Shown here one piece after another: positions 3,739 through 9,314 of a stretch of DNA of 64,000 bases. How positions within the stretch are numbered: position 1 is the stretch's first letter; each line of letters opens with the position of its first letter. Below the pieces are notes generated by a model. That model saw only the letters and a program-made list of their open reading frames with translations, did no database searches and was not told the DNA's origin. The translations under genes were made by a program, and so were the position numbers. This stretch comes from Thermodesulfobacteriota bacterium (GTDB taxonomy: Bacteria; Desulfobacterota; RBG-13-43-22), in NCBI GenBank assembly GCA_049520575.1, contig JBEKPQ010000003.1, forward strand, positions 24,632 through 88,631, written 5' to 3'.

Positions 3739-4531
3739 TATACTGTTCTCCTTTCATCATACCGGCAGATCGAGAATTCGAGCGCACAACTTTCATTCAA
3801 ACTTTCAAAAACTAAACCTGGACCATTGTTGACAAATGCCTTCCAACCTCAAGGATATCAATTATTCTTGTAACGGGAATGATCCCCATACACTGAGGAC
3901 AGATCCCGAGCCTCCTTAGCCGACCACATAAAAATACTAATCCGAATCCTATTCCTAAAGTAAAATCCCCCCTGCTCCCGCTTGGGGCATGACGACTTAT
4001 CTTTAGTCCATATTTTTTAATAAATTCAAGGAGTAACTCTGACTCTTTACAATAATCCTTTTAATTTATATCCTACTTTATAAGATTTGTCAATATATTG
4101 TATGTTAATTATTCTTTTACCACAATATCTTGGGGAAATCGGCTTTCTGCTGCCTTAAATTTTCCCATAGCTAATCATTTATGCTTTCGACTTTTTATAC
4201 CATTTTCCCCTTTGTTGATTATTTTTAACAGCCTTGCAAGCTGGAAGTTAAGAACCCAAATCTCCCACCTCCTGGTCAACGATTATCCATGGGAAAGCTG
4301 TATGATTTCCCAAAATAATAAATTACTTTTTCAGGAAGAAGTAATGAAAAAAATTGGCAGATGCTTGTGACTTTTTCTAACAGTTTGCGGAAAAACTCAT
4401 AATTTACAGGTTTCTCAAAAAGGCCCAGATACAAGGCGCCCGAAATTCTGAGGAATGAGGCGTACATAGAAGTACGTCGCAATGACGAAGAATGAGGGCA
4501 ACGCAGTAGACGGGCCTTTTTCAGCAACCTG

Positions 4532-6328
4532 TTAATCCGTATCTGACTTTAATACGGCCACGAAGGCGCCCTGGGGGATTTCGACCGCGCCGACCATCTT
4601 CATCCGTTGTTTGCCTTTTTTCTGCTTCTCCAGAAGCTTTCGCTTCCGGGTAATGTCCCCGCCGTAACATTTGGCGGTGACGTCTTTTCGAAAGGCCGAG
4701 ATGGTCGAGCGGGCGATAATGGCGCCGCCGATGGCCCCCTGGATGGGGATCTTGAACATCTGCCTGGGGATTTCTTCTTTAAGCCGGTCGCAGATCTGGA
4801 CCGCCCGGGCCCGGGCGCGATCGCGATGGACCATCAGGGAAAGGGCATCCACCTTCTAGCTGTTGACCAGGATATCCAGTTTCACCAGATCGCTTTCTCG
4901 ATAGCCGATCAGCTCGTAATCAAAAGAGCCGTATCCGCGGGTCAGGCTTTTTAGCTTGTCGTAAAAATCATAAATCACCTCGGCCAAAGGTAGGTCATAT
5001 TTAAGTTCCACCCGGCCCGGTGTGGGGTAATGCATCTGGGGATTCAATCCCCGACGTTCCCGGCAGAGATTCATGATATTGCCTAAATAAGTATCGGGGA
5101 TCAAAATCGTGGCCCGGATAAAGGGTTCCTCAGAGTAGTCTATGGTCATGGGATCGGGATAATATTGGGGGTTATCGACAATGACCGTCTCCCCGTCCTT
5201 GAGATGATAGCGGTACTGGACGCTGGGCACGGTCATAATGATGGCTTGGTTATATTCCCGCTCCAGGCGCTCCTGAACGATTTCCAGATGCAACAACCCC
5301 AGGAAGCCGCAGCGAAACCCCTGACCCAGGGCCGCGGAAGAATCTTTTTGATAGATCAGGGCGGCATCGTTGAGCTTGTACTTTTCCAGGGCCTCGGACA
5401 GAGACTGATAGTCCTCAGATGAAATGGGATAGATGGAGGAAAAGACCACGGGCTTGACTTCTTTGAAACCATGTAACGGCGTCGGGGCCGGATTGGTATC
5501 CAGGGTTATCGTATCTCCAATACGGGTGTCGCTGACAGTTTTGATGCCGGCGATAATATAACCCACCTCGCCGGCCGATAGTTCCTTTCGAGATTCGCGC
5601 GTCAACCGAAAAAATCCTACCTCTTCCACCAGGTAGGTAGCGCCGTTGGACATGAGACGAATCGTATCCCCGGCACGAACCGATCCGTTGAAGACCCGGC
5701 AACTGATAATGGTCCCGCGAAAAGGGTCATAATGGGCATCAAAGATCAAAGCGGTCAAGGGGGCATCCTGACTCCCTTTGGGCGCAGGAATCCGCTCGGT
5801 AATGGCCTCCAGAATCTCCTCGATCCCGATCCCTTCCTTGGCCGAACACAGCAGGGCCGATTCGGAATCCAGGCCCAGATCGTTTTCAATCTCTTCCTTG
5901 ACCCGTTCAATATCGGCCGAAGGCAGATCAATTTTGTTAATGACCGGGATGAGGGTCAGATCCTGGTCTACGGCGGCGTACATATTGGCCAAGGTCTGAG
6001 CCTGCACTCCCTGAGCGGCATCGATCAAAAGCAAGACCCCTTCGCAGGAGGCCAAGGCCCGGGAGACCTCATAGGAAAAATCCACATGTCCGGGTGTGTC
6101 GATCAGGTTCAGGTCGAATTCTTCTCCTTTTTTGTTGGTATAAGGCAGGGTGATGGTGTTGCTCTTAATGGTGATGCCCCGTTCCCGTTCGATGTCCATG
6201 GTATCCAGAATCTGATCCCGGAACTGCCGCTGGTCCACCAGCCCGGCGTATTGGATCAGACGATCAGCCAGTGTGGATTTGCCGTGATCAATATGGGCGA
6301 TAATGCTGAAATTGCGTATCTGTTTCAT
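4532..6328 (-). CDS. lepA: Elongation factor 4 (LepA), interrupted by an in-frame TAG at 4856-4858 where other LepA sequences have Glu. The N-terminal 490 aa and C-terminal 106 aa are in the same frame.
   Basis: N-terminus [24 protein letters not shown] and GTPase motifs. The C-terminal block [23 protein letters not shown] is typical of LepA. Codon-by-codon reading gives ...[22 protein letters not shown]..., which aligns with E. coli ...VLINGERVDALALITHRD. Confidence 0.85.
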
Positions 6329-6449: not shown

Positions 6450-6893
6450 TTATGGTTTTAACAGCTTGAAACCCAAAGCCGGCTCCAACTTGCGAACCGC
6501 CGTGGTCTCCAGGAGTTCTATCAGAACCACCTCGGCCACCTGCCAAATCTTAACCCCGTTGCGGACACAGCCGGTTATAGTGGAATTCAGACGCCCTGCA
6601 GCCACATGCATGTGAAGGAGCGGAGTTCCTTCTTTATCAGGGAAGAGGGTACCGGTCCCAAAGATTTCATGGACGTCTGCCAGTTCATGGGTCATGGGAT
6701 TCACCGGACTGGCCCGCCCATCTTCCGGCCCGACCACTAAACGGCTTTGACGGTCCGCGCCACCGAGGGCAATCATGTAAGCAGCCTTAATCTCTTGTTC
6801 GACGGCAAAACGTTCAATGGTCTCGTGAAGGATCTCCCCGTCTTCCAGTCGAATGATAAAAATACGTCCCTGCCTGGCTTGTAAATATTTCAT
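6450..6893 (-). CDS. DUF296/PPC-domain protein (predicted DNA-binding, PD1-like).
   Basis: 147 aa ORF. Sequence pattern (GRLNSTITGCV..., AAYMIALGG) is typical of COG1661/DUF296 proteins. Confidence 0.55.
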   Translation of the reverse strand: MKYLQARQGRIFIIRLEDGEILHETIERFAVEQEIKAAYMIALGGADRQSRLVVGPEDGRASPVNPMTHELADVHEIFGTGTLFPDKEGTPLLHMHVAAGRLNSTITGCVRNGVKIWQVAEVVLIELLETTAVRKLEPALGFKLLKP

Positions 6894-7282
6894 AGTAAAA
6901 CCTCAAGGATAATAATTGTGGGAGAACTCAAAAATGAAGAACCACCATAAAAGAAGATACTAAGAATCCGAAAAAAAAGGAAGGGCTAATTTTCAACAAG
7001 GGTTTTTTTCTTGACCTTTCCCTGATGAGCTCCCTTGCTGGAAATCGTCTGGCGATAATAATTATTTGTCAAGATAATATTTATCATTTATAATAAGTTA
7101 AATGACCTAAAAATAGGTCAGTTGTTTTTTGACTGCTCTATAGCAGCCAAAGGCTATCGTTGGGATCCTTGATTGGATTCTTTGATTTATGTAGTTATCC
7201 AGAAAAACTTTAGAATAACTTGTTGGGGCCGGTTTGTGAACCGGCGCCCATTAGCCACCTGAATTCATGCTGAGGCGACGCA

Positions 7283-8221
7283 ATGTCCACTCAAACCCGC
7301 TCTGGGCACATTCTCCAACTTGTGAGAGAATTACTCGACGACATTGAACTAAGTCGCACGAGTCCGGAAAACCTCATACTCAAGGCGTCTCGCCTTGCTC
7401 GCTGGGTGGGAAGCGAAGAGATTCGCTATTGGCTGAAGCTTGAGATGACCGGTTACAACAACTCTAATGCTATCTCGATCAAATACATGGGGTTGACCGG
7501 CCGTTGGACCGACCGCGAGAAGAAACTAGGCTATTGGGGTCCGCTGGCACAGCAAGAGGCAACGATCATTGCCGAACGGGCCAAGCTTGCGTCTATGCGC
7601 ACCCCAGACTCTAGTAGTGAGTGGGCAGCAGCAGCAATCGGGAACGTAACCGACGTCATGACGGCATCCGCGAACCTGATTTCTCGTCTCAGTGGAATTA
7701 GGACACGAGTCCTTGGACTTCTTCATTCTTTCGTTAGCGAGATTTACTACGAGAAGGAATTCGACAGCCTTTCTGAATCAATCTTCGAGCGCTACAAGCG
7801 TGACGTCGATTCGCTCATATCTGAAAACTGTGGCGAAGTTCTGGAGAAGATTCCATCCGTGATGGATCGTCTTGTAGACGGAGATCAAGAGTCCATCTCA
7901 CAAGCCTTGGCGACTTGCAGGCGGATAATCGAGGCGTTCGCAGACTCCATATACCCTCCGACAGATCAGACCGTCGAAATCGGTGGCAACACACTGAAGC
8001 TCGACGCTTCAAAACACCAAAACAGAATAAACGCGTTCGTCCATGCCAAGACTCAGAGCCAATCTAGAAAACAACGCCTGCGGCAGAACTTGTCAAATCT
8101 CTTTGATCGCGTTTCGTCGGGTGTTCACACCGAGGTCACCGCTGAGGAGGCTCGCGCATTGTTTCTGAATACCTATCTGTTTCTTGGTGAGGTGCTGCAT
8201 GTTGGGACGTCAGGCGTCTAA
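7283..8221 (+). CDS. Hypothetical 312 aa protein with an AbiTii-like N-terminal region (abortive-infection family). Sits alone on a small inserted segment.
   Basis: N-terminus ...LILKASRLARWVGSEEIRYWLKLEMTGYNNS resembles the AbiTii N-terminal signature (KAL.LA..L...EL..W...ELNGY). Flanked by AT-rich non-coding DNA. No homologous neighbours. Confidence 0.45.
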   Translation: MSTQTRSGHILQLVRELLDDIELSRTSPENLILKASRLARWVGSEEIRYWLKLEMTGYNNSNAISIKYMGLTGRWTDREKKLGYWGPLAQQEATIIAERAKLASMRTPDSSSEWAAAAIGNVTDVMTASANLISRLSGIRTRVLGLLHSFVSEIYYEKEFDSLSESIFERYKRDVDSLISENCGEVLEKIPSVMDRLVDGDQESISQALATCRRIIEAFADSIYPPTDQTVEIGGNTLKLDASKHQNRINAFVHAKTQSQSRKQRLRQNLSNLFDRVSSGVHTEVTAEEARALFLNTYLFLGEVLHVGTSGV

Positions 8222-8399
8222 CCCCTCTGCCAACTGTACCTATCTATTGCAGGCCGCTTACGTCGAATGTTTGGGCGATAAAATAAGATTCCTGTAGAAT
8301 GGGACACTGTTAAGTTATTAAGTTTCTATGGAAGAAAAGTAGTTTTGTGTCAATACAAGAATTATACTGCGCGTCTTATGAGCCGAAATGAAATGGTGA

Positions 8400-8660
8400 T
8401 CTATAAGGAAGGTTAAAGGAACAGATGAACTCCGCCCGGAGTATAAACGGGAAGATCTTGGTGTAGGAGTCCGTGATAAATACTTTGAAGACTATAGCAA
8501 AAGAACAAATCTTATATTTCTATCCCCCGACGTAGCAAAGGTATTCACTTCTGAAGACGCGGTCAATGACACCCTACGGTCTCTCATTAATTTGGCAGAG
8601 AAACCCACAGGTCGAAAAAGTCGTTCCACTAGATCAGCCAAAAAGCGGGCTTCCCGATGA
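8400..8660 (+). pseudogene. 5'-truncated remnant of a BrnA/CopG-like type II antitoxin. Frame ...ELRPEYKREDLGVGVRDKYFEDYSKRTNLIFLSPDVAKVFTSEDAVNDTLRSLINLAEKP...* has no start codon (a stop lies immediately upstream at 8397-8399).
   Basis: Hand translation. The motif RGKY...(V/I)xLDPDVAxxF...VNxxLRxL is characteristic of this antitoxin family. No partner toxin ORF is present. Confidence 0.35.
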
Positions 8661-8711
8661 ACCTCGTGTTGCCGCTATCGGGATGAAGCAGAGATGGTAC
8701 TTTAATTTTCT

Positions 8712-9314
8712 TTAAACCAACGTAAAATCTTTTCGCAGGTGAGCTGCCTCGTTCAGACTGGCGACCGAACGTTGCCCTTTCACGGAGGCCAAAAACCGGC
8801 TGATACTGGTGTATTCCGGGGCGAAAAAAAGATATTTATCGATGCCGAGAACATGAGCGGCCCATATATTGATGATGCCGCCATGACAGACCACGGCTAC
8901 GCGCTTGCCGCCGTTTTCCCGGATGATTTTTTCCAGGCTGTCCAGGACGGTTTTTCTAAAATCCTTCAGGTTGAATAACTTTTCAAAACCGCCGCTCACT
9001 AAATCCAGCCATAGGTCATAGTATTTGGCCCTTAATTCTTCCATAGGAACATAGGCAGAGGATTGGTTGTCAAATTCGGCCACACCCGGTTCGATTTTGA
9101 TCTCAATTCCTTTGATCTCAGCCAAAAATTTTGCGGTCATGTGGGCCCGATTCATGGGGCTGCTGTAAATGGCGTCCAATTTTTCCGACTTCATCCAGCG
9201 GGCCAGTCTTTGGGCCTGTTCGATTCCTATTTCGCTCAAACCGGGATCAGCCGGAGTGCCGTCTTCTTTTTGAACCCTCAGGGGAAGGGCATGTCGAATC
9301 AATATCAGTTCCAT
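8712..9314 (-). CDS. Histidine phosphatase family protein (phosphoglycerate-mutase-like).
   Basis: N-terminal RHG-type motif LILIRHALP; ~200 aa, typical of the family. Confidence 0.7.
   Translation of the reverse strand: MELILIRHALPLRVQKEDGTPADPGLSEIGIEQAQRLARWMKSEKLDAIYSSPMNRAHMTAKFLAEIKGIEIKIEPGVAEFDNQSSAYVPMEELRAKYYDLWLDLVSGGFEKLFNLKDFRKTVLDSLEKIIRENGGKRVAVVCHGGIINIWAAHVLGIDKYLFFAPEYTSISRFLASVKGQRSVASLNEAAHLRKDFTLV

Follow-up and report, generated by a model that had tools for sequence, protein, structure and literature searches.

In Lactococcus lactis, the abortive-infection system AbiT is made up of two genes, AbiTi and AbiTii (Bouchard et al. 2002, reviewed in PMC13064643). The lactococcal AbiTii lacks a HEPN domain, whereas AbiTi carries the nuclease-like part of the system (PMC13064643). 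Fusions of an AbiTii domain to a HEPN domain of the family named c2405 have been described computationally, with an occasional helix-hairpin-helix (HhH) domain at the C-terminus (Anantharaman et al. 2013, PMC3710099); in the same work, the AbiTii domain is characterized by a highly conserved glutamate, and the c2405 HEPN family is listed as 'conserved H but lacks R'. Here, a locus with a protein of this kind is analyzed in a 64,000-nucleotide (nt) stretch of DNA from a Thermodesulfobacteriota bacterium (contig JBEKPQ010000003.1, positions 24,632–88,631 of the forward strand), which will be called the window and is numbered from its first letter. The element in question is the 1818-bp intergenic segment 6894–8711, placed between a gene for a PCC/DUF296 protein and a gene for a histidine phosphatase (His_Phos_1). 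It contains an open reading frame (ORF) of 312 amino acids (aa) with an AbiTii-like N-terminus and, downstream of it on the same strand, the remains of a toxin–antitoxin (TA) module.

The data are best explained if the segment is a composite islet, in which a live, stand-alone AbiTii-HEPN gene probably lies beside a dead TA module of the BrnT type, the two of them never having been partners.

Results

Domain organization and conservation of the AbiTii-HEPN protein

The AbiTii character of the N-terminus, proposed in the initial annotation from the sequence alone, was confirmed by profile searches. Residues 12–178 matched positions 1–186 of the 189 positions of the Pfam profile PF18864 (AbiTii) with an E value of 1.3e-18 and a score of 68.3 bits, above the curated cut-off of 27.6, and the AbiTii model of PADLOC recognized the 312-aa protein with an E value of 8.2e-21. 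A word-indexed search yielded 965 homologues, the best 120 of which were all 68–100% identical to the protein, and an exhaustive search yielded 1157 representatives of 50%-identity clusters. The hosts included another Thermodesulfobacteriota metagenome-assembled genome (MAG), with an identical protein, as well as Hydrogenophaga, Paraburkholderia, Vibrio, Photobacterium, Halomonas, Aliarcobacter, Chlorobiaceae, Limnocylindrales and a Candidatus Uhrbacteria genome.

Conservation was evaluated with a divergent alignment of 43 homologues, 27–51% identical, and with a close alignment of 36 proteins. PF18864 was also matched by 42 of the 43 divergent homologues, and Glu54 and Arg74 of the N-terminal domain were invariant in all 43. 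In the C-terminal part, the invariant or nearly invariant positions of the same set were R213, R214, N247, R248, R276, G280, H282, E289, Y298 and E303. Among them, R276, G280 and H282 were conserved in at least 90% of the divergent homologues and were invariant in the close ones. The 36 close proteins, from at least six phyla, had a mean column identity of 78%, and nearly all were 310–312 aa long, almost without insertions or deletions.

No sequence homologue was found in the PDB, either with the single sequence or with a profile. Concerning structure prediction, the AlphaFold (AF2) model of the full protein reached a predicted local distance difference test (pLDDT) of 82.8, and the C-terminal domain modelled alone gave a pLDDT of 88.7 with a predicted template-modelling score (pTM) of 0.81. 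The C-terminal model is a four-helix bundle with a β-hairpin insert, and R276 and H282 form an R-x5-H motif where helices 3 and 4 meet. So, the C-terminal half is predicted to be HEPN-like. A different proposal for this bundle is that it is non-catalytic and serves for binding or oligomerization, the protein then acting on some conserved component of the cell or the phage, by sequestration or blockade, with no cleavage of RNA. This seems unlikely, as conservation within the domain is highest, among the divergent homologues, at R276-x5-H282, G280, E289 and N247-R248, and as the motif occurs about 70–75% along the domain, a place similar to that in HEPN toxins according to our own estimate from residue numbers. 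For the latter, we relied on the entry names of PDB structures 7ae8 and 7ae2, which we take to indicate R102 and H107 in chains of 141–152 residues.

Judged by the published description, the 312-aa protein matches the AbiTii plus c2405 HEPN architecture. A 392-aa protein of an Alteromonas plasmid, annotated as HhH-containing, matches residues 148–305.

The gene as an intact and self-contained unit

The 312-aa ORF is the only intact one in the insert. Its surroundings were delimited by comparison with other copies, the loci compared being designated by L and a number. L037 is 95.98% identical to the window over 1021 nt (blastn), bounded exactly by positions 7251 and 8271, and its context beyond these limits is unrelated, the next gene there looking like an OLD/AAA-type ATPase. 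In L039, with only 70% DNA identity, the homology likewise starts at 7251. The ratio of non-synonymous to synonymous substitution rates (dN/dS) of the ORF was 0.16 versus L037 and 0.055 versus L038, and synonymous sites were saturated in the comparison with the gene for an 83%-identical protein. Since the ORF is intact and these ratios are low, the gene can be considered functional and under strong purifying selection.

Homologues with 70–96% identity occur in many phyla as single genes, often in defence islands. The neighbourhood is formed by Gabija-like OLD and UvrD genes, an nSTAND NTPase and a resolvase in Aliarcobacter; by CBASS (Cap15 and CD-NTase), ParDE and Phd/YoeB in Halomonas; and by an insertion sequence (IS) element and a PLD-family gene in Vibrio. 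In Chitinibacter, the gene is inserted between hrpA and a glyoxalase gene, and plasmid-borne homologues occur in Streptomyces and Acinetobacter. No constant partner gene was seen in the Aliarcobacter, Halomonas, Vibrio, Chitinibacter, Streptomyces and metagenomic contexts. Because L037 shares with the window only 7251–8271, and because no neighbour recurs elsewhere, the AbiTii-HEPN gene is a self-contained single-gene module and not the orphaned half of a pair. Nor was an AbiTi partner seen: the insert holds no other intact ORF and about ten homologue contexts hold no constant neighbour, although no AbiTi profile was used.

A 153-aa ORF upstream of the P0006 copies was considered as a conserved partner and discarded, as it is unrelated to the 'endonuclease VII' ORF located upstream in Streptomyces. 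A phage origin was also discarded, with no tblastn match to a homologue in 50,697 phage records. The DNA of the gene had no blastn match in E. coli genomes.

The inactivated brnT-antitoxin module

The frame that occupies 8400–8660 is open but has no ATG, GTG or TTG start. A large protein search found an 85-aa protein of the same MAG (P0271) with 86% aa identity to its translation, and at the DNA level window 8355–8665 aligned with 3952–4264 of L040, also in that MAG, with 91% identity (286/313, E = 1e-125, blastn). L040 has an intact brnT gene (115 aa, PF04365 BrnT_toxin) that overlaps the antitoxin gene by 14 nt. From this alignment, the window retains the antitoxin gene in its full length of 85 codons, with the start codon changed from ATG to ATA, preceded by the last 20 codons of brnT, which carry a 1-nt deletion. 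The antitoxin differs from its intact paralogue in 10 aa, including a change of G to D in the conserved VRGKY motif, and its dN/dS of 0.47 is consistent with relaxed constraint. An in-frame TGA is found 4 nt upstream of the ATA codon.

The initial annotation had described this frame as a start-less fragment of a decayed BrnA/CopG-like antitoxin. Decay and the loss of the start are borne out, but the gene is a complete 85 codons rather than a fragment, and no Pfam or NCBIfam model matched it, those of BrnA and CopG included. The brnT remnant before it had gone unnoticed in that annotation. Its resemblance to BrnA is limited to the sequence pattern and to the position beside a BrnT-type toxin gene. 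The antitoxin gene and the 3′ end of a PF04365 gene overlap in L040, L041, L042 and a Kovacikia plasmid; in the plasmid, a 70-aa ORF 47% identical to the antitoxin was located by tblastn.

The remnant of brnT was recognized only through the DNA identity to L040, as protein methods gave neither a Pfam match nor, with BLASTP of the translated remnant against Kovacikia BrnT, any hit. The AbiTii-HEPN module and this remnant are separated by an AT-rich spacer that matched none of the compared loci, L037 and L040 included. Most of it (8282–8354) was considered as brnT-derived and rejected: the translated frame 8282–8413 had no Pfam match, BLASTP against Kovacikia BrnT was empty, and the homology to L040 starts at 8355. 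A 'VEWDTVK' stretch, at first suspected to be brnT, is coincidental given that start of the remnant, and so is 'YRWDP' at about 7160.

These data bear on the explanation advanced in the initial annotation, according to which the AbiTii-like gene is an orphaned effector, the former toxin of a TA or defence pair whose antitoxin is the decayed BrnA-like gene downstream. The two genes are indeed adjacent and on the same strand, and some HEPN toxins have cognate antitoxins. However, the partner of the antitoxin is BrnT, as the overlaps with PF04365 genes indicate, and the last 20 codons of brnT still lie between the AbiTii gene and the antitoxin. Moreover, none of about ten AbiTii-HEPN contexts contains the 85-aa antitoxin, and the 96%-identical copy of L037 shares nothing past 8271. 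The orphaned-effector explanation is essentially refuted and is left with very little probability.

A variable site between the PCC and phosphatase genes

Relatives of the PCC protein from a genome collection, and relatives of the phosphatase from metagenomes, were mapped by tblastn and blastn. L024 and L025 have an empty site: their flanking proteins are 86% and 83% (L024) or 75% and 73% (L025) identical in aa to those of the window, and the gap between the phosphatase and PCC genes is only about 130 bp and 170 bp, respectively. L018 shows full synteny (carboxylesterase, phosphatase, PCC, LepA) with 1.4 kb between the phosphatase and PCC genes, where 4903–5480 encode a pair formed by a PIN-VapC toxin and a MazE/AbrB-type antitoxin (Pfam). 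The closest relative, L023 (89% DNA identity), carries at the site a DUF4160 plus DUF2442 pair (Pfam). The segment is not conserved in all relatives, and it is, as initially annotated, an insertion. Because the site is empty in L024 and L025 and carries other cargo in L018 and L023, it is in this Thermodesulfobacteriota lineage a small, variable hotspot that receives TA and defence cargo.

The limits of the insert were approached from blastn homologies. With L024, homology ends at 8711 and restarts at 6926; with L018, it restarts at 7025; with L023, it extends from the phosphatase gene to 8625, window 8625–8720 being aligned to L023 4492–4397 with 77% identity. The insert would therefore span roughly 7040–8710. 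The AT-rich flanks reported in the initial annotation were verified, with GC fractions of 0.34–0.40 at 6850–7300 and 0.42 at 8200–8650 compared to 0.50–0.55 in the neighbouring genes. No convincing direct or inverted terminal repeats bound the insert, the best being of 14 nt with 86% identity (7138–7151 versus 8629–8642), and a crude motif scan of the window found no tyrosine recombinase.

The last 12 codons of the DUF2442 ORF of L023 ('...SAKMRASR*', 4457–4492) correspond to the 3′ end of the antitoxin gene (window 8625–8660), fused in frame. Because these codons are also present in L023, brnTA probably occupied the site earlier, in the ancestor that both loci share, and was overwritten differently in each.

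The coordinates of all these features are collected in Table 1.

Table 1. Features of the locus (window positions, except for the last two rows, which refer to L044)
Feature	Position	Strand	Basis or remark
PCC/DUF296 gene	6450–6893	minus	PF03479, E 1.5e-21
Backbone intergenic DNA outside the insert; 5′ of the PCC gene and probably containing its promoter	6894–7040	.	blastn, L024/L018
AT-rich DNA at the left end of the insert	7046–7250	+	Promoter-like site, palindrome and hairpin inside
AbiTii-HEPN gene module	7251–8271	+	ORF, 32-bp leader (GAGG ribosome-binding site, 7271–7274) and 50-bp tail; blastn versus L037
Intact 312-aa ORF	7283–8221	+	PF18864 and PADLOC AbiTii matches
AbiTii N-terminal domain	aa 12–178, nt 7316–7816	+	Pfam/PADLOC
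C-terminal HEPN-like four-helix domain, after a long connecting helix	~aa 186–306, nt 7838–8200	+	AF2 model
R276-V-S-S-G-V-H282 codons (R-x5-H, HEPN Rx4-6H type)	8108–8128	+	Junction of the last two helices
AT-rich spacer between gene module and brnT remnant	8272–8354	.	No match to any compared locus
brnT 3′ remnant, last 20 codons	8355–8416	+	DNA alignment to L040; 1-nt deletion near 8367, stop TAA 8414–8416
Antitoxin pseudogene, full-length 85 codons	8403–8660	+	DNA alignment to L040; start ATG to ATA at 8403–8405
Short intergenic stretch to the stop codon of the convergent phosphatase gene	8661–8711	.	Common to L023 together with 8625–8660
His_Phos_1 (histidine phosphatase) gene	8712–9314	minus	PF00300, E 6.7e-30
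Repeats of ~126 nt with RYYYAAC/GTTRRRY-type ends, Vibrio campbellii chromosome	L044 7856–7985, 10025–10152, 11029–~11155		
V. campbellii AbiTii-HEPN homologue	L044 8001–8939		IS element inserted after; repeats bracket neighbouring genes too

Beyond the PCC gene, lepA (4532–6328, minus strand) contains an in-frame TAG at 4856–4858 ('...DILVNS*KVDALS...') where L018 and L019 have Glu. Gene callers split lepA into products of 490 aa and 106 aa, also in an independent contig of the Joint Genome Institute (L001). The TAG could be a nonsense mutation, an assembly error or a case of recoding. The idea that both this TAG and the TGA before the antitoxin are recoded was dropped for the antitoxin, as its paralogue has a plain ATG past the TGA.

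Upstream elements of the insert

The AT-rich DNA at the left end of the insert showed no similarity to any compared locus (blastn), and no Rfam element was found in 6800–8800. A promoter scan gave a near-consensus sigma-70-like promoter, TTGTCA-17-TATAAT, at 7066–7094 on the plus strand (11 of 12 positions). The perfect palindrome seen in the initial annotation is present, with its position corrected to 7103–7120; its sequence, TGACCTAAAAATAGGTCA, occurs once in the window (0.08 occurrences expected by chance) and has a folding z of −3.5. It coincides with the predicted transcription start of the promoter and is followed by a run of T; the two could serve as an operator or as a weak bidirectional terminator, or could form a stem-loop at the 5′ end of the transcript. 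The GC-rich hairpin that had been indicated just upstream of the ORF, GCCGGTTTGTGAACCGGC at 7228–7245, was found as well; its predicted fold reaches 7224–7250 (−12 kcal/mol, z = −3.6), and it ends directly at the boundary of the gene module, 7251.

The 32-nt leader of the module, 7251–7282, has the form TTAG(C/A)CACCTGAA(T/C)TC...GAGG... and is common to the window, L037 and L039. It is conserved even in L039, whose ORF has just 70% DNA identity. This suggests a conserved 5′ element, for instance a ribosome-binding context or an old cassette boundary. Upstream of its 96%-identical copy, L037 has at about 95–125 a perfect palindrome of 23 bp, GTTATATACAG-T-CTGTATATAAC, and two more half-sites of the type CTGTATATA(A/T) at about 190–200 and 235–250. 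Palindrome and half-sites together look like an operator array, and they are absent from the window.

A possible relation to integron cassettes

The mobility of a unit the size of one gene would be explained by a 'SALIN'/attG-type insertion, in which an integron cassette, either the AbiTii-HEPN gene itself or its forerunner, ended up at a site outside an integron. Cassettes are known to be inserted by IntI at genomic GWT sites, and they also occur in isolation (bioRxiv 10.1101/2022.09.11.507474). The V. campbellii homologue, 72% identical, is bracketed by three repeats of about 126 nt that start with GCTTAAC, end with GGGCGTTAAGA and show a cassette-like spacing. These repeats presumably fit the VCR/attC consensus, and this homologue would then be a cassette of a chromosomal integron. 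In addition, L037, L039, L012 and L046 have a GTTRRRY heptamer 20–35 nt before the start codon; a RYYYAAC heptamer lies over the stop codon in six loci (the window, with GTCTAAC, L037, L038, L039, L007 and L046); and window 8216–8315 fits the pattern RYYYAAC...GTTRRRY.

However, this candidate attC of the window forms no hairpin (−4.5 kcal/mol, z = +1.5, worse than shuffled sequences), chance alone would give about 0.4 RYYYAAC...GTTRRRY pairs per 2 kb, and the window has a degenerate 5′ core (ATTAGCC). The module has 205 bp and 83 bp of DNA of unknown origin on its two sides and does not touch the backbone; the window, L037 and L039 do not provide independent observations of the heptamers; and the scan mentioned above revealed no tyrosine recombinase. 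So, a cassette origin of the gene is rather doubtful, and for the window copy a decayed cassette is possible but unproven.

In a broader formulation, the gene would be a defence cassette of its own, present across the bacteria and disseminated mostly through integrons; the window copy would be a decayed SALIN-type insertion that killed the resident brnTA, and the protein would monitor or attack an invariant cellular target. This formulation is quite improbable in our estimation. If true, integron spread would explain both the gene-sized mobility and the presence of the gene from Campylobacterota to candidate phyla radiation (CPR) bacteria, integron cassettes would seed small defence hotspots in genomes without an integron, and the constancy of the sequence would reflect the invariance of the target.

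Discussion

From its family, the AbiTii-HEPN protein may be seen as a single-protein abortive-infection or toxin module. Its AbiTii domain, with the invariant Glu54 and Arg74, would hold the HEPN domain inactive until a phage-derived cue is detected; the HEPN domain, with R276 and H282 as the putative catalytic pair, would then cleave RNA, so that the infected cell is arrested. Concerning the site, most of brnT was probably lost as the DNA with the Abi gene arrived, and with the toxin gone the antitoxin would no longer be needed and could lose its start codon. The data show the domain content, the conservation and selection, the insertion at a hotspot and the pseudogenization; that the protein cleaves RNA and senses phage through its AbiTii domain is inferred, as are the order of events and the way in which the gene is mobilized.

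Several considerations weigh against this interpretation or parts of it. The AbiTii half has its Pfam match, but the C-terminal ~130 residues matched no Pfam, NCBIfam or PDB sequence. The c2405 family is said to lack R, whereas at least 90% of the divergent homologues studied here keep Arg276, six residues ahead of the His. An aa identity of about 70% across phyla, with saturated synonymous sites, is unusual for a defence gene, and such high conservation could reflect a different, more constrained role. The searched literature, in which AbiTii is mentioned by only three papers, contained no experimental work on the AbiTii-HEPN fusion. As to the order of events, that the arrival of the Abi gene truncated brnT is deduced only from the adjacency of the two.

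With the composite islet as the preferred interpretation, the tempting reading of the gene as an orphaned toxin is corrected. The locus exemplifies a tiny chromosomal hotspot where the turnover of TA and defence cargo leaves datable scars, namely the loss of a start codon and a truncated toxin gene. It also adds a member to an architecture already known computationally, the unusual aspects being the conservation across phyla and possibly a dissemination by integrons. The family is abundant and strikingly conserved, and with the catalytic motif predicted at R276/H282 and its possible integron link it makes a reasonable candidate for validation in defence.

Compared to the computationally described AbiTii plus c2405 HEPN fusions, the protein has the same AbiTii domain of about 180 aa at its N-terminus, in which a Glu is conserved (Glu54 here), and likewise a C-terminal, α-helical domain of HEPN type with a conserved His. 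The genes are in both cases bacterial, stand-alone and found in defence contexts, and the accessory HhH domain was recovered here in the Alteromonas plasmid homologue. The likeness to AbiT of L. lactis is limited to the AbiTii domain, for which abortive infection is the sole phenotype tested; here one gene, with no AbiTi, carries a fused HEPN-like domain, while the lactococcal AbiTii has 213 aa.

The second module is comparable to the BrnT/BrnA systems, as L040 has a PF04365 toxin gene followed by a small overlapping antitoxin gene and the window keeps the same arrangement. It differs in that the 85-aa antitoxin belongs to a family with the motif ELRPEY...VRGKY...LxPDVAKVF...VNxALRSLI, which no Pfam or NCBIfam model matches, BrnA included, and in that both genes are inactivated in the window, where the module is a remnant and not a working member. 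Finally, the site resembles the defence and TA hotspots between core genes in that the same core pair surrounds either an empty site or differing small cargo, with no integrase present. It differs from them in being very small (0.1–1.8 kb) and in holding one module at a time, with earlier occupants leaving remnants: L023 keeps the end of the antitoxin gene, and the window that of brnT.

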